The notes under the pieces were generated by a model. The model was not told where the DNA came from, ran no database searches, and saw only the letters and a list, made by a program, of their open reading frames with translations. This document shows positions 2,630 through 23,142 of a DNA stretch of 32,000 bases, piece after piece. The first letter of the stretch is position 1; each line of letters starts with the position of its first letter. The position numbers were made by a program, and so were the translations under genes. The DNA is from Methanocaldococcus sp. FS406-22 (GTDB lineage: Archaea > AGJL01 > Methanococci > Methanococcales > Methanocaldococcaceae), in NCBI RefSeq assembly GCF_000025525.1, contig NC_013887.1, positions 1,626,871-1,658,870 on the forward strand, in the 5' to 3' direction.

Positions 2630-2686
2630 ATATTTATTTTAAAACTTAATGATTATTTTAATATAGAGGGTATTGAGGTGGAGTGG

Positions 2687-4795
2687 ATGAAAAAGTTTAT
2701 TTTTGTAGTTTTACTACTTGCAGTAATTAGCTGTTCTTACTCATCAAATTTGAATTACAAATATGCAAGCTCAATTCCTATAGTATTCGTTCAATTATCT
2801 AAAATTAAAAGTATAGATGAACTTAAAGAACTCTTAGATGAAAATAATACTTTAACCATATTTTGTATGGACAGTCAGTCAATTAATAAGGACATATTAT
2901 GCTACTTAGGGATAAAAAAATACACTCCATTGAAACTTCCAGATTATGGGAATTACACATATATTAATAAAAATGGGGTTATTGTAGTTTATCCAAAATA
3001 CAGTGTTTATGAGGAAAATGGAGCTTTAATATATAATCCACCAAAGGAAGAGAATTATAGCAAATATGAATTTGTAAAGCCATATAAAATAAAAGTTCTA
3101 AATAATTCAAAAATCCCAAATTATGATGGATATGTATTAATAGAAAATTCAACCTTTATCCTCTACCCAAAAAAATACATAATTAGAGGAGATAATGGAG
3201 AAGTTTATTATATTCCTCCAAAAGAAAGTTCTGATAGATATTATTATAAGTACTCCTATGACCTTCCAGAAAAATACATTCCCGATTATTACGGTTATGT
3301 ATTTGTTGATAACAGCAGTGTTTTCATAATATATCCAAAAAAATATATTACAAGAAATGATGATGGAGTTTTAATATTCAATCCCCCAGCAGATGTTAAA
3401 GAAGTTCCAATTTATAAAATTAATTATAAGAAAGTAGCTGATGGAGTCTATGAAATTAAGAAAAATAAACTTCTTTTTCTGTATCCTACAACTCTAAACA
3501 ACAAATCAACTCTTGATATTATTGGTGAATATATCGCAAAAAATGGAGGAATTTTTGCATATATAAACAAAGTTCCACCTTATTATAAGCATATCCTTGT
3601 TTCAGGAGTCGCAATAGATAAAGTAATTCCAGATGAAAATGGAGATTATGCTATAGATGTTGCAGGAAGGAAGATTAAAGTAGATATGCTGGATAATAGT
3701 ATAATAGAAAAAAAGTTGGGAGCCATAAAGGCATTGAGAGCATTTGGGATAAATGTAAGTTACATAGTGACAGGTAGCGAAGGCATAGATATTGTCGAAA
3801 AATCTAATGTTAATATGAATGAACTTGAAGATTTATATAACTACTACTGGTTTAAAAAATGGTGGCAGCAAAATTATACTCATCTATATTTCAATCCAGA
3901 AAAAATGCAAGATATTAATTGGGAAGATATACTCGCTTTAAGTTATTATCCTTTAATCTATGTGGATAAAGCACCAGAAACATTTAGAAATGACCCCATT
4001 GGTGGATACTACCCTAAGGTTATAAGTTATGAGGGAACAAAAGAGTATGGTTACTGGGAAGAAGGACCTAAAAGTGAAAATATTTATTATCACTTAGATG
4101 ATGGTGAACCATACTGGGAGGGAAAAGCTAAAGAATCATCAAAATGGTATTATGAAGGAGAACCGGTTTCACCGGAAAATGAGAGCGAAATGTGGGATAA
4201 ATACAAGTATTTCAACCACTGGTTTGTTAAAAATTATGCCTATGCATTAGCAAATGGTTGTCATGGGTTGTTCTTAGAAAGTTCAGATAAATACTTAATA
4301 GATGCAATTTTTGGAAAAGATAATGATGAGTTGGATTGGAAATTAGATTTAAAAGATAAGGTTGATTATGTGGTAATTCCTGGAAATAAAGGATTTGAAA
4401 CATATGATGGAATCCCAATAGTCAGAATCCCTTCACCATTAAAAGAGATTTATGGGATAAATGTTGTTAGCACATTATACATTCCGCCAAAAGATGAAGA
4501 CTTTGGAGTTTATATTGCAGATATTAGGAACTTTAGTGAAGATTTACTTATCAAACTAAAGGAAAATGGAACAGCAATAATATCATTCAAGGATTTGGCT
4601 AACTGGCTTGATAAGTATAATAAGAACAATATTCTATATAATGGAACTGCTATAATTATAAAAGATAATAATGGGATAAAAATCACCATATTTAAAAAGA
4701 ATCTTAACGTAAGTAATTATACAGTTGAAGAATTCGACAAAGAACATTGTAAATATGTAATAGCAAATCCACCGAAAATAATTCCTTTGAACTAA
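2687..4795 (+). CDS. Large secreted or lipid-anchored Tyr/Asn/Lys/Trp-rich protein with N-terminal tandem repeats, function unknown
   Basis: ATG at 2687 follows SD GAGGTGGAG; the ORF-track start at 2678 is GTG. Signal peptide [16 protein letters not shown]. Three repeats of about 55-59 aa ([10 protein letters not shown].., [10 protein letters not shown].., [10 protein letters not shown]..). Confidence 0.7.
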
Positions 4796-11674: not shown

Positions 11675-11775
11675 TGATGTCCCCAATGTATTTTATAATA
11701 AAGTTTTTAATAATAATAACTCAACATGACTTATAAAAATTTAATCATGACTTAAAACTAAATTATAGCTATTAT

Positions 11776-13434
11776 TTAATAATCAAAAAACTCAAAACCG
11801 GCAACTGTAAATAAAAATACTGACGTTAAGAGATATCTCTCTTCCTGAGCAACCCAAAATAAGGGCATAATTAAAAATACTACTGCAAGGGTTAGGATAT
11901 AATATTTAAATGAACTGTTTTTAATGATTTTTTCTCTTTTAATGATAAAAAGTGTTAATAATACAGTTATTGGGAAAGCAATGTCCATTAAAAATTTGGG
12001 TAGATAAAATATAACATTTTTAATAAAAATATCTAATGAAATTCCTCCTTTTGTAGAAATCTCACCAACATAGCCATATATTTCTCCTCCACTTATAAAA
12101 AGCAAAGTAAGATACAACACAATCGATAACATTAAATATAATAATGACTGCTTATTTTTTTGATAAAAAGCATATATTAAAGGAATAGCTAAAGAATGAA
12201 CTCTAACCAAAGCTGAAATTGAAGTCAATAGAGATAATATAATGATTTCTAAATTTTTGCCTTTGAAATTTTTTAAAATATGCAAGATTATCATTAAAAA
12301 TGTTAAAAATGTTAATTCAGTGGAAAACATTAAAATATATTTTTTGAATAATGGAATTCCTAAGAGTATTAACATCACAATCAATCCTAAAAACTTCCTT
12401 TTGAAATAAAGAAATATAAATCCAACCATGATAAAGAACATATAGATTTGATAAAACACAATGCTTTCCAAAGATGGTTTAAAAATATGAAACCAAACAT
12501 ATAAACAATAAGAAAGACCACAAAAGCTTCTTCCAGAGATTATCGTTTCATAATGTCCTAAATATAGGAGAGATAATGCCCCATCCAAATAAACAAATAG
12601 TGCATCCCAAACAATACCAAAGTCATACTTATGCCAAAAAATCCATAATGCAGAGATAATTAACGCAACTATATAATAAGGGCTTCTAATATAATAGTAA
12701 AATATTGCAGAAGTAATCAACAAAATTATAAAGAATAAGAGTAAATCATTAAATTCGTAAGTTATATGTTTTGCAAATAGTCTCCCAATAGTGCTAGGCA
12801 AATTCTCATCACTGCCAGTTATATAGAGAGTGTTATTATAATAAATAACTGCTGGACAAAAAGAGACAATATATGGCAGTTTAATATTCCAATTATCCCT
12901 CATTTGTGGATTGTTATTAATATTTCCAACATAAATGACTGTTTTATTTCCATGATGGTCTTTTTTTAAAGAATAATATATAAATTTAGACCATTTTTTT
13001 GATATTGGGCTATTTCCTTCAATTATTATCCAGTTTCTTTTTTCAATTATTGTTTTTAATATTAACTCCTTTGATGGGTAGAATATTAAATTTCCACTAC
13101 AATTAATATTATAGAAATTGGATAACACCAAATAGGCGGTTTCAACCCTATCCTTTCCAGCAAATCTTTTATAATTTCCAATATTAAAACATTCAGGAAC
13201 TGAATATTTTCCACCAATAATGATTATTTCTGTTGCGTTCAGATTTTTTAATTCATTAACATATTTTTCATCTGTTGAACCCCAAGGAATTATAAATGGT
13301 GTTGCATTCAAATGTTCAGAAAGTTGATAAACTAGTGTTTTATCTTGGTCAGAGCCAACAACAACAGTTTGTGCAGAAGAATGGTTTATTATTAATGTAA
13401 GGATAATGAAAAATAATATTAAGGGTTTTTTCAT
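11776..13434 (-). CDS. Polytopic membrane protein with an N-terminal extracellular CWB2-like (cell wall binding repeat 2-like) domain
   Basis: Signal peptide. IIIIGGKYSVP and KRFAGKDRVETAYLV resemble the CW_binding_2 consensus. About 10 predicted hydrophobic helices follow. The start is 1 nt after the upstream stop. Confidence 0.6.
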   Translation of the reverse strand: MKKPLILFFIILTLIINHSSAQTVVVGSDQDKTLVYQLSEHLNATPFIIPWGSTDEKYVNELKNLNATEIIIIGGKYSVPECFNIGNYKRFAGKDRVETAYLVLSNFYNINCSGNLIFYPSKELILKTIIEKRNWIIIEGNSPISKKWSKFIYYSLKKDHHGNKTVIYVGNINNNPQMRDNWNIKLPYIVSFCPAVIYYNNTLYITGSDENLPSTIGRLFAKHITYEFNDLLLFFIILLITSAIFYYYIRSPYYIVALIISALWIFWHKYDFGIVWDALFVYLDGALSLLYLGHYETIISGRSFCGLSYCLYVWFHIFKPSLESIVFYQIYMFFIMVGFIFLYFKRKFLGLIVMLILLGIPLFKKYILMFSTELTFLTFLMIILHILKNFKGKNLEIIILSLLTSISALVRVHSLAIPLIYAFYQKNKQSLLYLMLSIVLYLTLLFISGGEIYGYVGEISTKGGISLDIFIKNVIFYLPKFLMDIAFPITVLLTLFIIKREKIIKNSSFKYYILTLAVVFLIMPLFWVAQEERYLLTSVFLFTVAGFEFFDY

Positions 13435-13435
13435 T

Positions 13436-15865
13436 TTACCACTCTTTGCTTAAATAATCATTTTTAATTAGTTCTTTTATTTTATCTAAGGCCTTCTCTT
13501 CACCATACATATAGCTATATACTTCATAAATATCCAATAAAGCCGCTAATGGTTTAATTTCATCTAAAGAATTATATTGACTAACTATTTTTTCTTCTTC
13601 TTTCGCTTTTTCTTTTAATCCTAATATATAGTAAATAAACATAATCTTCGCATAGGTAGCTTTTGAGTATTTATACTTATATTCGTCTTTTAAATAGCCG
13701 TTATCTCCTTCATAATCAATAATATACTCAGCTGATTTATTTATTGCTTCTAAAACCCTTGTGTCATTAGATAGTTTGTAATAGGCTCCTAAGCTATAAG
13801 CTACTTGAATAGTGTCAGATATTGACCTTCCCCATTTTCCATCTTGTTTTTGCTCTTTTAAAACGTAATTGATGTAATCGTTAAGCTGACTCCTATTTAT
13901 TAAATTTAACTCATAGAGGTAAGGAATTAAAGAAGCTACTTCAACTACGTCTTCTTCTTTATTGGTTGTTATGTTATAATCTATCTCTGAAACTTCCTTT
14001 TTTATATAGGATATAGCTTTATTCTTATTTTTGAAATTCATGTTTATTATCGGCTCAAGAACTCTTACAGTTGTTAATACGTCTTCTTTTGGAGGAATTC
14101 CAGTTACATAAGCACCATCCTTCATCTCTTTATATGCCAACCATTTTAGTAAATAATCCCTTCTCTCTTTAAATCTTGAATCATTTGTTTTCTTGTAATA
14201 CATATCATAAATCTTACAAATCTTTGCATTTAATACGAAGTCTGCTTTGTATCCTTCATCAAAGTCAGCGTAGTTATACCCTGTCCAGAATTTTTCAAGG
14301 TAATTTACTAGAGGGTCGTTATATCTTATTTCACCTTTATTTTTTGGCTCTAAGGTTGCATTTGGGATATATTTATAGATTTCAGAATTTCCATTAGCAA
14401 ATAGTAATTTAAAGTGAGTGTCATAAGCGACATACTCCGAAAGTCCATGCTTTATTATTCCATAGTTTCTTATTGTCTTATCTAAATAGACATATGAGAC
14501 ATTGTACTTCTTTAGTAAATAATAAGTTCTCTCCTTATCGACTTCTCCAAACATTGCAACCAAGTCAGAATATGCCATCATTACATCTCTCAAACTTGGT
14601 GGTTTTCCCATAAAGCCTTGATAAACCTTCATCCAAGTTAATATATCCCTTCTATGAGTGTTTCCTATGAGTAGATATCCTGTAGTCCACCAAGTTAGAA
14701 ATACTGAATTTTCAGGAGTATTTTTCTTAATCCAATCAAATGCTTCTTTATCTTTTACTGTTGGTGGCTTTATGAATAGATACGCTCCAGATACACCTTG
14801 AGTAGTAGAAACCAAGATAAAAATCGACAATAGTATTGCATATATTTTCTTTTTATTTATTTTAAATTTAAGTTTTAGGTTATTTAAGCTCAGTTTTATT
14901 TTTTCTACCCATCCTGGGAGATTCATATAGATATATTCAGAGGCCATTATTGATAATGGAAAGGTTGCATAAGGGTCTCTAAATCTAAATGAAAAACTAC
15001 CTATTGTCAAAAATGCCAAAGCCCATAGTGCAATACCTTTTTTTAGGTTATCTCCTCTTAAATACATATTAAGTGCTAAAAATCCAAATATTAGTTGAAC
15101 AACTCCTATCCATTTAAAGTATCCTAATAAACTAACTTCAGATTTAGGGATTCTACTTATTGCGTTAGATATCATTCCACCATCTACAAAGAATAATGCC
15201 ACTATTCCAAATAAGAAAACCCCCATCAAAATTAACATATACTTCGTATATCTTCTTGTGTATTCATACAAATAAGGGAGTGACATAAAGAATCCTGCCA
15301 ATACAAACATTACCCATCCTCTATGGGTTACCATATAGATTGGTAGTAAAATTATTAGTAATCCCAAATACTTCCAATTCTTTGATTTTAAAAACCTTGT
15401 AAATGTAAACATAGATAGGGTAAATAACAACAATCCTAAATTTTCAGGAATGTAGAGAGAACTTCTATATATAAAATTTGGAGCAAATGCAAAGAATAGT
15501 GTTGAAAGTAAGGCCACTTTTTCATTACTTACAACTTCCTTTGCAAAGTAATAATAAACCAATACTGTTAAAGTCCCAATAATTGCAGGTAAAATAAAAA
15601 AGACATAATCACTTGGAAATAGCTTATAACATAAAGCTCCAATAATATGAAACATTGGTGGATAGCTATAAGCTTTCAATCCAAGTAGGGAATATATATC
15701 TTTTGATATTACACCAAACCCCTCATTAACTATCCTCAGCGTTATATCTCTATGTAAATACTCATCATAAGTAGCTAGGATTAGATTTCTGTGGGGGATT
15801 AATCTAACTATGAATGAAATTATTAATAGTAGAATGAGAAATATTTTTTCAGATTTTGAGCTCAT
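13436..15865 (-). CDS. GT-C fold glycosyltransferase, STT3/AglB-like paralog with degenerate WWDYG (WWTTG) and a helical-repeat C-terminal domain
   Basis: 809 aa with SD AGGTGAT. First-loop motif YDEYLHRD (15746..15769) and LTWWTTGY (WWTTG at 14678..14692). About 13 hydrophobic helices. C-terminal QKQDGKWG-type repeats. Confidence 0.6.
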   Translation of the reverse strand: MSSKSEKIFLILLLIISFIVRLIPHRNLILATYDEYLHRDITLRIVNEGFGVISKDIYSLLGLKAYSYPPMFHIIGALCYKLFPSDYVFFILPAIIGTLTVLVYYYFAKEVVSNEKVALLSTLFFAFAPNFIYRSSLYIPENLGLLLFTLSMFTFTRFLKSKNWKYLGLLIILLPIYMVTHRGWVMFVLAGFFMSLPYLYEYTRRYTKYMLILMGVFLFGIVALFFVDGGMISNAISRIPKSEVSLLGYFKWIGVVQLIFGFLALNMYLRGDNLKKGIALWALAFLTIGSFSFRFRDPYATFPLSIMASEYIYMNLPGWVEKIKLSLNNLKLKFKINKKKIYAILLSIFILVSTTQGVSGAYLFIKPPTVKDKEAFDWIKKNTPENSVFLTWWTTGYLLIGNTHRRDILTWMKVYQGFMGKPPSLRDVMMAYSDLVAMFGEVDKERTYYLLKKYNVSYVYLDKTIRNYGIIKHGLSEYVAYDTHFKLLFANGNSEIYKYIPNATLEPKNKGEIRYNDPLVNYLEKFWTGYNYADFDEGYKADFVLNAKICKIYDMYYKKTNDSRFKERRDYLLKWLAYKEMKDGAYVTGIPPKEDVLTTVRVLEPIINMNFKNKNKAISYIKKEVSEIDYNITTNKEEDVVEVASLIPYLYELNLINRSQLNDYINYVLKEQKQDGKWGRSISDTIQVAYSLGAYYKLSNDTRVLEAINKSAEYIIDYEGDNGYLKDEYKYKYSKATYAKIMFIYYILGLKEKAKEEEKIVSQYNSLDEIKPLAALLDIYEVYSYMYGEEKALDKIKELIKNDYLSKEW

Positions 15866-15901
15866 TTTATCACCTTAAAAGTTATTTATTAAGTGATAGC
15901 A

Positions 15902-17011
15902 ATGGAAGCAATAAAATTAATAAAGAAGTTGGATGTATTTCATCCAATTGTTATTATTATTATTGGACATTTGGCAATTTTTATTCTGTCTCTACCATAT
16001 TTACATAATTTTAAATTATCTTTGTTATTAAAAATAATCGCAATTACTTTATTATATATCTCTGCATACTCACTTCCATTTGTATTTAATTTTAACTTCA
16101 AAGATTGTAAAATGTTGAGTTATTTAGCATTATTTTTATCATCATCTCTTGCATTATTTGGGGCTTTTAAGGTAACTGGCTCTCTAATTTTTGCAGTAAT
16201 TTATTGGTTATTTATCATAGCTGTTGTAGAGGTTTTTATCAGATATTATAATAAAAAGGTATTTACAGACTTTTTGTTTGTTGTTGGTATTTTATCATTT
16301 ATTTTGATTCTGTTGAAATATGGAGCGATACCTATATTAGATTATGATGTGAGAATGAAAATTAATTCAGAGCCGTTGAGATTAATAGCTACAGGAGCTT
16401 TAATTTATGCAAGCATTGAGAATAAAATTTATTTTATAGTGGCGTTTATACTGCTAATCTTACTTGGATATAAAGCGGGCGTATTAATGCTATTTATTGC
16501 ATACTTTGTTTATAGGAGGAGATCTTTAAAACATCTTATATTTTATTATATCGGATTACTAATTTTCTTAGGGATTATGGGAAAAATTATTCTGCTGTCA
16601 TCCAATCAAAACTGGAATTTAAATCCAATAGAACTTTTATGTTATAGGGCTTATTTTGATTTGTATGTTCTTAGCAAGATTATTGAAAGCAATATATTGA
16701 CCCTTGGGAAAATTACCCTAACTCCTAATGGAGAGCACCTTATAGGCGAGCTACTTTTTAGGTATCCTCATAATATTACAACAACTTTATTTGGAACGAT
16801 ATATCTTGATTTTGGGATTTTTGGAATCTTGTTTGCTATACTATTGGGAGCTGTATCAAAATTTATATATGAGGGTGATAAAAAGCTCTATGCAATATAT
16901 GCCTCTTTATTGTTAGCTTATTGTGATATAGGCATAAACTACGGATTTTTAATAGTTTTATCTTTATTATTTTATATAAATGCAAAGTTAAAAACACTTA
17001 AAGAGGGATAA
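15902..17011 (+). CDS. Polytopic membrane protein, possibly Wzy-like oligosaccharide repeat-unit polymerase
   Basis: About 10 or more hydrophobic helices with no soluble domain. Divergent from the GT-C gene. The family assignment is a guess from architecture and context. Confidence 0.4.
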   Translation: MEAIKLIKKLDVFHPIVIIIIGHLAIFILSLPYLHNFKLSLLLKIIAITLLYISAYSLPFVFNFNFKDCKMLSYLALFLSSSLALFGAFKVTGSLIFAVIYWLFIIAVVEVFIRYYNKKVFTDFLFVVGILSFILILLKYGAIPILDYDVRMKINSEPLRLIATGALIYASIENKIYFIVAFILLILLGYKAGVLMLFIAYFVYRRRSLKHLIFYYIGLLIFLGIMGKIILLSSNQNWNLNPIELLCYRAYFDLYVLSKIIESNILTLGKITLTPNGEHLIGELLFRYPHNITTTLFGTIYLDFGIFGILFAILLGAVSKFIYEGDKKLYAIYASLLLAYCDIGINYGFLIVLSLLFYINAKLKTLKEG

Positions 17012-21288: not shown

Positions 21289-21755
21289 TCCTCTAACATT
21301 ATATATAGCTTTAAGAGTTTTTCAATAATCTCAAGCTTCTCAATGATGATTGCTATAAGTTGGTTGTGTCTATAGCTATAAAGCTCTTGCCTTAATATAT
21401 GCAAATAATGGAAAAACTTTAGCTTTAAATAGCTCTCTTTAAACTCCTCCCAATGTTCTTCATAGTGCTTTCCATGCTCTATCCTTGGAGATAATATATA
21501 GTCAGATGCATGCCTATAAAGCTTTAAATCCATTAAGAAGTTTCTAATCTTTTTGCTAAAATGGGCATATCTCTCCTTATTGTGCCAATCCTCAATGTTT
21601 TCTCTAATATAGAATTCAAATGCATTTAATAAATATAGCATCCCATAATAAAATCTCGACACAAAAGTCCTTAAATCAAATTCTTTTAATGCGTTAATAC
21701 AACTGTCTAAAAAATGAATGCACTCTTTTAAATAAGTGTTATTTAGGTTATGCAT
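21285..21755 (-). CDS. Helical protein, possibly HEPN-like
   Basis: [18 protein letters not shown] and LYRHASDY resemble the HEPN helix-2 and R-x4-Y/H motifs by eye. Start chosen at ATG 21755 after GGGTGATGGG (8-nt overlap with wecC); the alternative ATG is at 21776. Confidence 0.35.
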
Positions 21756-23025
21756 TCTTCCCATCACCCAAGACATAAACTTTAAAGCCCTCTTCCTCCC
21801 ACAAATCTCTCTTTAATATATTTTTAGTGTCAAGGATTAATTTATTGTTTACCTTTGAGGCAATCTTCTTTATATCCTCTTTATCAAAATTTCTGTATTC
21901 ATCATGTTCAGCTAATACCACAATAATATCCGCCCCATTAATAGCTTCCTCTAAACTATTTAAAGGATAAATAAAGTCTCTTGCATATTTATCATAGCAT
22001 TTAACTTCAAAACCTTCATCTATTAATTTACTAACAACCTTTTCAGCAGGACTCTCTCTTGTGTCATCAACATTTCCTTTATAAGTTACCCCAAATATAG
22101 CTATTTTTCCATTATCTTTTTTAATTATTTTTTTAATCTTCTCAACAACAAACAACGGCATGGAGTCGTTTAACTCTCTTGCAGTTCTTATAAGTTTGGC
22201 ATTTTTTGATTTTTCAACAATAAACCATGGGTCTATGCTTATACAATGCCCTCCTACTCCAGGCCCTGGTTTTAGAATATTTACTCTCGGGTGCTTATTA
22301 GCTAACTCTATAGCCTCCCAGACGTTGATGCCAATCTCCTCTGCAATCTTTGCAAACTCATTAGCTAGGGCAATATTAACATCCCTATATGTGTTTTCCA
22401 TTAACTTAACCATCTCTGCAGTTTTTGCATCAGTTAAATAAATCTTTCCAGTAACAAAGGTTTCATAAATCTCCTTAGCCATTTCAGCAGATTTTTCGTC
22501 AACTCCACCTATAACTCTGTCGTTCTCAACAAGCTCCTTCAATATATTTCCAGGCAGAACCCTCTCTGGACAGTGAGCTAAATAAATTTTTTTATCCTTT
22601 GAGAGTTTTTTGTAAATCTCATCTGTTGTTCCGGGAGGAATTGTGCTTTCTATAATAATTAAATTTCCATCTTCAAGACAGGGCTTTATGCTTTCAATAG
22701 CTTTATTTAGGTAATTTAAGTCACATTTCTTTTCTCCGTTGCATTCAATACAAGGAGTAGGAACGCAGATAATAAAAACATCCGCCTTTTCTGGCTTTGT
22801 TTGCACTTTTAAGTTTCCAGAATTTATGGCCCCTTTAACTAATGTCATTAAATCTTTTTCTGTTGTTTTAAAGCTTAGCTCTTTAATTTCCTTAACCCGT
22901 TTCTCGTTAATATCTACCCCAATAACATTAAATCCATGTATTGCTAACATTGAGGCAGTTGGTAATCCAATATATCCTAAACCAATTACACATATCTTCT
23001 TCCCATTACCATTTTTCTTTGCCAT
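21748..23025 (-). CDS. wecC: UDP-N-acetyl-D-mannosamine (nucleotide-sugar) 6-dehydrogenase
   Basis: [15 protein letters not shown] Rossmann motif and catalytic-Cys motif GGHCISIDP. Start chosen at [10 protein letters not shown] (23025) after GGGATAGG; the ORF-track extension to 23079 is unlikely. Confidence 0.85.
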
Positions 23026-23142
23026 CCTATCCCAATTTAGTGTTTTAAGATTCTTTATAGCCAGAGTATATAACCACAAACTACAAAAACCTTAAGGTTA
23101 TAATTATCTCCACACCTATAAAATTATTTGTGAGGGATTGTC

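Follow-up and report, generated by a model that had tools for sequence, protein, structure and literature searches.

A very probable STT3/AglB/PglB offshoot with a C-terminal (alpha/alpha)6 toroid encoded in Methanocaldococcus sp. FS406-22

What might be the role of an archaeal membrane protein that has the scaffold of an oligosaccharyltransferase catalytic subunit, carries Thr-Thr in place of the Asp-Tyr of the signature motif WWDYG, and ends in a barrel of helices in place of the peripheral units of such enzymes? The question is raised by a gene in a stretch of 32,000 nucleotides (nt) of Methanocaldococcus sp. FS406-22 (contig NC_013887.1), the whole of which is here called the window. Its product of 809 amino acids (aa), WP_012981261.1 in RefSeq and ADC70359.1 in GenBank, was named "Oligosaccharyl transferase STT3 subunit" in GenBank and renamed "glycosyltransferase family 39 protein" in RefSeq. 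Both names are inaccurate: the protein is no bona fide STT3 subunit, and it is not of the GT39 family either. It is very probably an integral-membrane glycosyltransferase of the GT-C class, an offshoot of the STT3/AglB/PglB lineage, and it belongs to a small, separate and uncharacterised archaeal family rather than to the orthodox N-oligosaccharyltransferases (N-OSTs). To our knowledge, protein and surface glycosylation in Archaea is understood almost wholly via AglB, and the enzymes for AglB-independent, O-linked and polymerised surface glycans are unknown. No characterisation of this GT-C family, or of PF01901 or DUF6798, both of which are met below, was found in the searchable literature.

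The open reading frame (ORF) is the one proposed in the initial annotation, which was made from the letters of the window alone, and the motifs quoted there translate exactly at the positions assigned to them. The gene and the features of its product are as follows, with the basis for each in brackets (EL, external loop).

13436..15865 (-): gene for the 809-aa GT-C glycosyltransferase, very probably STT3-derived (ORF list; AlphaFold2 (AF2) model; nearest folds STT3/AglB/PglB)
15746..15769 (-): YDEYLHRD, aa 33-40, first external loop motif, with D34 the putative catalytic Asp (conservation; hhalign to the EL1 Asp of AglB)
15440..15451 (-): IPEN, aa 139-142, with the invariant E141 where STT3 has position three of DxD/DxE (profile alignments)
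15314..15328 (-): THRGW, aa 180-184, family-specific, with H181 and R182 invariant (family alignment)
15104..15184 (-): external loop, aa 228-254, placed where STT3 has EL5; the AglB loop is longer by about 80 residues (model; alignments)
14969..14992 (-): SFRFRDPY, aa 292-299, the best-conserved family signature (family alignment; hhalign)
14321..14776 (-): aa 364-515, an extracytoplasmic unit of alpha/beta type and a homolog of the central core of STT3/AglB (profile; model; hhalign)
14675..14692 (-): WWTTGY, aa 392-397, positional equivalent of WWDYGY, including Thr394 (hmmsearch; hhalign; family alignment)
14645..14665 (-): GNTHRRD, aa 401-407, with G401, R405 and D407 invariant (family alignment; profile against STT3)
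13439..14320 (-): C-terminal (alpha/alpha)6 toroid, aa 516-809, 12 helices and three QW-like repeats (profile; model; Foldseek)
13832..13852 (-): QKQDGKW, one of the three QW-like repeats (family alignment)

Kinship of the membrane module and core unit

Scans of the query alone against family models are ambiguous as to its placement. In Pfam, PMT_2 is matched over aa 69-222 (2.2e-8; 34.9 bits against a cut-off of 26.1) and PMT just over its cut-off (23.0 against 22.7 bits), and neither PF02516 nor PF21436, the models for STT3/AglB/PglB, gives a match at E<=1. For the NCBIfam model archaeo_STT3 (TIGR04154) the score is 27.3 bits where 450 are required, and for Agl23 it is 25 where 126 are, so the query falls below the curated thresholds for the STT3/AglB/PglB family (GT66 in CAZy). 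Across 54 family members PF02516 is matched by 7 only and PMT_2 by 45. However, the PMT_2 match that lies behind the RefSeq name is not discriminating, because a bona fide AglB retrieved in the search of representatives described below (P0120; Pfam STT3 1e-31) also matches it, at 7e-8.

Relatives of the query were sought in 5.8 billion proteins, and a separate exhaustive search with a hidden Markov model (HMM) was made over 1.84 billion representatives. The former yielded 86 relatives, among them one JGI sequence at 88% identity to the query, one clade at 55-58%, some 40 Thermococcus and Pyrococcus proteins at 45-53%, one other Methanocaldococcus protein at 46%, Methanobacteriaceae and Methanothermobacter proteins at 33-38% and Aenigmarchaeota at about 31%. 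In the latter, only about ten 50%-identity clusters are full-length, each with at least 440 bits, and the next full-length proteins have at most 136; given this fall the family is small and sharply bounded. It is found in Thermococcales, a few Methanococcales, Methanobacteriales and Aenigmarchaeota, its membership being mostly Thermococcales and not Methanococcales. In an alignment of 54 members the invariant residues are D34, H38, P140-E141, H181-R182, the run F293-R-F-R-D-P-Y299, W378, G401, R405, D407, Q672 and G676, and at least 90% of members have Y36, D40, W184 and W678 (W678 being invariant in a set of 22 sequences). Such conservation, and the column-wise alignments described next, make the quoted motifs more than chance likenesses.

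A profile of this family, run with hmmsearch against all sequences in the PDB, finds eukaryotic STT3 best (1.4e-11 to 6e-8), with PMT chains at an E-value of 0.15. The STT3 match consists of two stretches, one in the transmembrane region and the other at residues 368-405, the region of WWDYG; E141 coincides with the Glu of D-N-E in STT3, and WWxxGY exactly with WWDYGY. The AF2 model of the 809-aa protein (pLDDT 89.9, pTM 0.83) gives a concordant ranking with Foldseek against the PDB: ranks 1-17 are all STT3, AglB or PglB (1.5e-12 to 7e-8), and only after these come DPY19 (1.7e-7), ArnT (rank 22, 5.5e-6), ALG12, AftA and PMT4 (rank 30, 1.4e-3). Proteins bearing WWDYGY are reached among the 1.84 billion representatives at 4.6e-30 and below, and those of them that were scanned are bona fide AglBs. 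When the family is aligned by hhalign with nine such AglBs, the probability is 100% and the E-value 4e-66 over 474 columns (family 1-509, AglB 20-635). In these columns D34 stands on the Asp of GMDPYFHFR, E141 on the Glu of D-K-E and the R294 segment on a conserved AglB Arg segment, and EAFDWIKKNTPENSVFLTWWTTGYLLIGNTHRR of the family is aligned to EALNWIKRNTPEDSVILAWWDYGYWIQTLANRR of AglB. No MIR domain is matched in the query by Pfam, and E35, which completes a PMT-like Asp-Glu, is S, A or P in other clades.

The proposal from which the work started, that the protein is STT3/AglB-like, is thus borne out by family profile, fold and profile-profile alignment. The outcome named beforehand as fatal to it, a placement with ArnT/PMT in which the WW segment would not fall on WWDYG, is not what the comparisons gave, since the profile and structure searches favour STT3 and WWTTGY does fall on WWDYGY. 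As for the Pfam models themselves, the query matched PMT_2 and did not match STT3, and it is by wider profile and fold comparison that STT3 is nearest.

Within the membrane module, the reading of YDEYLHRD as the first-loop acidic motif of STT3 is upheld by the alignment of D34 just mentioned and by the invariance of D34 and H38 in all 54 members. The second acidic motif takes the form [IVLM]-P-E in the family, the position of the first Asp of DxD being Ile139 in the query or a gap. The external loop at aa 228-254 is the least confident part of the AF2 model, and EL5 of AglB, with its SSIAEHQP and TIXE-type Glu, sits in a gap of about 80 residues in the hhalign alignment. Most members have a Glu at 242 or 243 of this loop (E243 in the query), those of the Methanothermobacter type have none, and no acidic residue there is invariant family-wide. 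The R294 region of SFRFRDPY, which pairs with ARISF in the conserved Arg segment on the AglB side, is a candidate phosphate-binding site. Neither THRGW nor SFRFRDPY was found in AglBs or in the relatives of about 490 aa dealt with below. About 11 membrane helices are counted from DSSP on the model and a crude hydropathy count; bona fide AglB gives about two more in the same count, and AglB has 13.

In the core unit, aa 373-391 are matched by Pfam DUF6798, a model that also matches bona fide AglBs. The by-eye correspondence of WWTTG (14678..14692) with WWDYG is confirmed column for column, with eukaryotic STT3 by hmmsearch and with the nine AglBs by hhalign, and the G and R found after WWDYGY in STT3 have their counterparts in G401 and R405. 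Of the two motifs singled out initially, conservation across the family holds for the YDEY region, in the residues D34 and Y36, and fails for WWTTG as a family feature, which is confined to the query's clade (9 of 87 sequences). Within those nine, which are 55-88% identical, WWTTGY is invariant. Elsewhere the equivalent segment is WWD[VLM]GY in Thermococcales, x-K-[DE]-[DE]-[AGS]-Y in Methanobacteriales, WKEEGY in Aenigmarchaeota and WWN[LV]GY in three sequences. Since position 394, variable across the family (D/E, N or T), is Asp or Glu in 85% of aligned members, Thr-Thr is a derived, conserved and clade-specific change in an already relaxed motif. No DxxK or MxxI (DK/MI) pattern is conserved across the family at aa 456-480, where the hhalign alignment is gapped. 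Canonical Methanococcales AglBs have WWDNG together with an MI motif (PMC5131992). No AglB of the WWDNG type was among the proteins retrieved, the FS406-22 genome itself not having been scanned for AglB.

The comparison with AglB/STT3/PglB (PF02516 plus PF21436) gives both shared and differing features. Shared are the GT-C fold, the transmembrane module, the first extracytoplasmic core unit, the EL1 Asp, the Glu at the third DxD position, the conserved Arg segment and, in register, W-I-x-x-N-T-P...WWxxGY...G-x-x-x-R. The query differs in lacking the first DxD Asp and an invariant TIXE/SVSE Glu in its shortened EL5, in having WWTTG where WWDYG or WWDNG is expected, in its apparently fewer helices (about 11 against 13) and unrecognisable DK/MI, and in an (alpha/alpha)6 toroid that stands in place of the beta-rich IS/P1/P2 peripheral units. 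A different kind of relative is provided by archaeal GT-C proteins of about 490 aa, which match the family profile in one stretch (1-496; 1e-28 to 1e-16) and share with the family D-x-Y-x-H and W-x-x-x-N-T-P...[DE]xG[HY]...R[KR], but are without toroid, SFRFRDPY or THRGW. As an observation in its own right, these proteins (P0118-P0244) form more than 100 clusters at 50% identity, combine an STT3-like transmembrane module with a core-like unit, carry the motif D-x-Y-x-H-x-R and are almost unannotated, their only matches being weak ones to PMT_2, EpsG or Chlor_Arch_YYY. They may constitute a large overlooked AglB-related family.

The C-terminal toroid

The C-terminus had been described at the outset as unlike the peripheral domain of AglB and reminiscent of prenyltransferase and terpene-cyclase toroids, from the spaced motifs MKDGAY (aa 581-586), QKQDGKWGRS (aa 672-681) and EGDNGY (aa 720-725). 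This description proved right, with the addition that six-hairpin glycan enzymes are resembled too. Q672, G676 and W678 make up a QxxxGxW repeat typical of alpha/alpha toroids, and a model of the domain on its own (pLDDT 93) has 12 helices in six hairpins. Sequence matches are scattered: SQHop_cyclase_N (0.07) and LANC_like (0.19) are weak Pfam matches of the query alone, the family profile reaches squalene-hopene cyclase (SHC) among PDB sequences at 5e-5, and in the 54 members the region is matched by SQHop_cyclase_C in 24, GH127 in 21, Pec_lyase in 21, GH88 in 9 and C5-epim_C in 5. Foldseek with the toroid likewise gives generic (alpha/alpha)6 matches only (E 3e-4 to 5e-3; TM-score 0.5-0.58), no subfamily being favoured. 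They include drimenyl-diphosphate synthase, C3d, GGTase beta subunits, MstE, SHC, GH76 mannanases, AGE/cellobiose epimerases, LanCL2, PssZ and a polysaccharide lyase.

The 12-helix barrel and QxxxGxW are thus shared with terpene cyclases and prenyltransferase beta subunits as well as with six-hairpin glycan enzymes such as GH76, AGE/cellobiose epimerases, the GH8 protein PssZ and C5-epimerases (e.g. Agl32). From these the query toroid differs in lacking DxDD and Zn ligands, in being fused to a GT-C module and in a presumed extracytoplasmic position. DxDD is absent from the query and no Cys or His is conserved at 80% or more in aa 505-809 of the family; E524, D534 and E769 are conserved acids and there are many conserved aromatics. 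By STT3 topology the toroid would lie outside the cell. With DxDD lacking and the domain so placed, a terpene-cyclase function was rejected, and from that placement glycan binding or processing would be likelier than terpenoid chemistry. A precedent is Agl32 of Archaea, an enzyme that modifies glycans, is alpha-helical and shows no recognisable catalytic residues (PMC13308652).

The gene neighbourhood

Two neighbours adjoin the gene closely.

15893..17011 (+): PF01901 (O_anti_polymase, Wzy-like) membrane protein, divergent neighbour (Pfam 1.3e-61)
11776..13434 (-): mem552 (MFS40622_1687), 552 aa, beginning 1 nt past the stop codon of the GT-C gene (ORF list; Pfam/NCBIfam; homolog search)

The database version of the PF01901 protein begins at an ATG, 3 codons past the GTG of the ORF list. 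The start codons of the divergent GT-C and PF01901 genes lie only 27-36 nt apart (15866..15901); this being very tight for two archaeal promoters, leaderless or overlapping promoters are likely. On the other side, the 1-nt spacer makes it probable that mem552 is translationally coupled to the GT-C gene. Mem552 has a signal peptide and, in its N-terminal part, a weakly CWB2-like domain; its C-terminal half of about 320 aa is polytopic, and no Pfam or NCBIfam family is matched. Its own family has 14 members only, in metagenome-assembled genomes of Methanococcales type and in Palaeococcus, one of them annotated 'cell wall-binding repeat-containing'. The idea that it arose by fusion of a TrmB_EBD-like secreted protein with the PF01901-A paralog introduced below was dropped, no similarity being found.

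Association of PF01901 with the GT-C gene extends well beyond the window. By an iterated HMM search of related loci (plain tblastn had missed the PF01901 genes of Thermococcales), PF01901 adjoins the GT-C gene in 16 loci of Thermococcales, nine of Aenigmarchaeota type and one of Methanobacteriaceae, and does so also in other Methanococcales. The divergent arrangement recurs in Thermococcus, and at one locus (L049) PF01901, a GT-C gene of the WWTTGY clade and mem552 are co-directional in that order. The fullest setting is an Aenigmarchaeota operon with genes for GT-C, GT4, PF01901, a Wzx-like Polysacc_synt flippase, a protein with CWB2 and a winged helix-turn-helix (wHTH), and a PF00953 initiating transferase, i.e. 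a complete set of Wzx/Wzy type, of which only the PF01901 gene adjoins GT-C in the window. The CWB2+wHTH protein of such an operon, at 13842..14789 of locus L037, has a CWB2 domain followed by a C-terminal winged helix of TrmB/MarR type; in this it recalls both mem552, with its CWB2-like domain, and what Makarova et al. describe as 'arCOG03414 / TrmB-like secreted protein'. That PF01901/arCOG03206 genes co-localise with predicted 'PMT-family' glycosyltransferases has been reported (Makarova et al. 2015, PMC5898192). The GT-C family itself may be arCOG00566 or arCOG00563. A separate observation concerns 11 Methanobacteriales loci (L015-L019, L021, L023-L025, L029, L038), in which a gene of the geranylgeranyl-reductase family (GGR_cat 1e-24) lies directly upstream and co-directional; it may reflect saturation of a polyprenol or dolichol carrier, or merely inherited synteny.

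Comparison with close relatives shows that the slot itself varies. In M. bathoardescens (L047, 5234..8125) the synteny is that of window 11700..17011, but the genes are those of a TrmB_EBD_N-like secreted protein, PF01901-A and PF01901-B, and M. maripaludis (L048) has the same triad with a TrmB_EBD-like secreted protein. The conserved frame is PHP_C ... PF01901-B, THUMP-SPOUT, DapB, with mem552 and the opposite-strand GT-C gene in place of the secreted protein and PF01901-A. Since the slot of these relatives holds another triad in the same synteny, FS406-22 carries an alternative cassette, and the slot looks like a variable surface-glycan locus. A gene of the UDP-glucose/GDP-mannose dehydrogenase family at 21748..23079 (-), about 6 kb from the GT-C gene, is at the same syntenic position in M. 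bathoardescens and so lies outside the variable cassette. Elsewhere in the window, a 705-aa ORF at 2678..4795 (+) matches no Pfam family at E<=1e-5.

Proposed function and its rivals

What, then, might the enzyme do? It would act at the outer face of the membrane with a sugar or glycan linked to dolichyl phosphate or diphosphate as donor, R294 and R296 holding the donor phosphate and D34, together with E141 and D297, activating the acceptor. The glycan would pass to an acceptor other than the Asn-X-Ser/Thr sequon, the variability of position 394 (D/E, N or T) and the lack of a conserved DK/MI being taken as loss of the sequon pocket. That acceptor would most likely be a surface glycan or glycoconjugate made jointly with the adjacent Wzy-like PF01901 protein. 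The enzyme could be either a terminal transferase ('ligase') or an extracytoplasmic elongating or branching enzyme, and the toroid might grip the glycan chain and possibly trim or modify it. Taken whole, as an STT3 offshoot that transfers a dolichol-linked glycan to a non-sequon acceptor, this proposal is plausible and falls a little short of probable; its functional part by itself is put forward with rather more caution.

Known systems offer parallels of a functional kind only. The mycobacterial Emb/Aft arabinosyltransferases are GT-C enzymes that act on polymers and carry an added extracytoplasmic domain for glycan binding, and WaaL and PglL are terminal transferases that are partners of Wzx/Wzy. 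With Emb/Aft the query shares a GT-C module with an appended domain, AftA being among its fold matches; with WaaL/PglL the parallel lies in the Aenigmarchaeota operons that pair the GT-C gene with Wzx-like, Wzy-like, GT4 and PF00953 genes. Neither is specifically related to it in sequence, the appended domain being a toroid as against the carbohydrate-binding module of Emb/Aft, and WaaL/PglL having another fold.

Several observations weigh against the proposed function. The active-site equivalences to AglB are read from profile alignment only, and that of the EL5 Glu is ambiguous even when local slices are aligned by hhalign. Retention of WWD[VLM]GY in Thermococcales makes a sequon-type acceptor possible for those members, and the toroid, with its three conserved acids E524, D534 and E769, may be a catalytic rather than a binding module. 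The link to PF01901 is missing in most Methanobacteriales loci and at L046, where there are also no glycan genes nearby; at L043 neither PF01901 nor glycan genes are in the upstream flank, and the downstream flank ends with the contig. No experiment on any member of the GT-C family was found in the searchable literature.

Of the other explanations, that of an enzyme of PMT/ArnT/AglS type, which is what the RefSeq name conveys, would have a single sugar, not a glycan en bloc, moved from a dolichyl-monophosphate sugar to Ser/Thr of a protein or to an exported glycan. It has on its side the N-terminal GT-C module common to PMT/ArnT (GT39/GT83), the PMT_2 and PMT matches of the query and the prevalence of PMT_2 among members, the resemblance of D34-E35 to the DE motif of PMT loop 1, and the missing first DxD Asp and invariant EL5 Glu, which suit non-OST chemistry; extracytoplasmic GT-C enzymes that decorate glycans are, moreover, well known (for an example see PMC11127046). 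Yet the PMT_2 match is shared by a bona fide AglB, PMT chains are remote by profile and at rank 30 or lower by structure, E35 is not conserved, MIR is lacking and the core unit is of STT3 type with WWxxGY kept, and we regard this explanation as unlikely. The GenBank name implies a genuine second N-OST, a paralog of AglB whose specificity for sequon or glycan has changed. The transmembrane and core units are clearly homologous to those of AglB, Thermococcales members keep WWD[VLM]GY, and more than 30 archaea are reported to have several AglB copies in which the WWDXG motif varies (PMC5131992). It is made distinctly improbable by Thr-Thr in the query where the +2 Ser/Thr of the sequon is bound, by the lost Asp, the curtailed EL5 and the unconserved DK/MI, by the absent Pfam STT3 match and a TIGR04154 score far under its cut-off, and by the WWDNG and MI motifs of the canonical Methanococcales AglBs.

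At the far end of the range is a catalytically dead STT3 relic that serves the PF01901 polymerase as scaffold, chain-length or export co-factor, the toroid being its sole working part, in glycan binding, hydrolysis or epimerisation. Loss of the classical OST catalytic motifs fits, as do the conserved acids of the toroid and the precedent of Agl32 for toroids that are glycan enzymes without recognisable catalytic residues. But D34, E141, H181/R182, R294, R296, D297, R405 and D407 do not vary among lineages that are only about 30% identical, which is not expected of a dead membrane module, and so this explanation is very unlikely. Returning to transfer to a non-sequon acceptor, one specific form of it, which is rather doubtful, is an STT3-derived 'ligase' that moves a PF01901-polymerised, dolichol-linked glycan to Ser/Thr of envelope proteins, to lipid or to another glycan, with the toroid gripping or processing the polymer. 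If true, Archaea would have in it their own equivalent of the WaaL/PglL/LCP enzymes, and the archaeal activities of AglB-independent or O-linked glycosylation that are as yet unassigned would gain a candidate.

More broadly, the STT3 scaffold has very probably been re-used in Thermococcales, Methanococcales, Methanobacteriales and Aenigmarchaeota, with its sequon-recognition and metal-binding motifs relaxed, an extracellular (alpha/alpha)6 domain added, and its gene coupled genomically to that of a Wzy-like protein. The small candidate gene set that results, GT-C, PF01901 and, in Methanococcales, mem552, is a concrete and testable candidate for a second extracytoplasmic glycan-transfer step in archaea.

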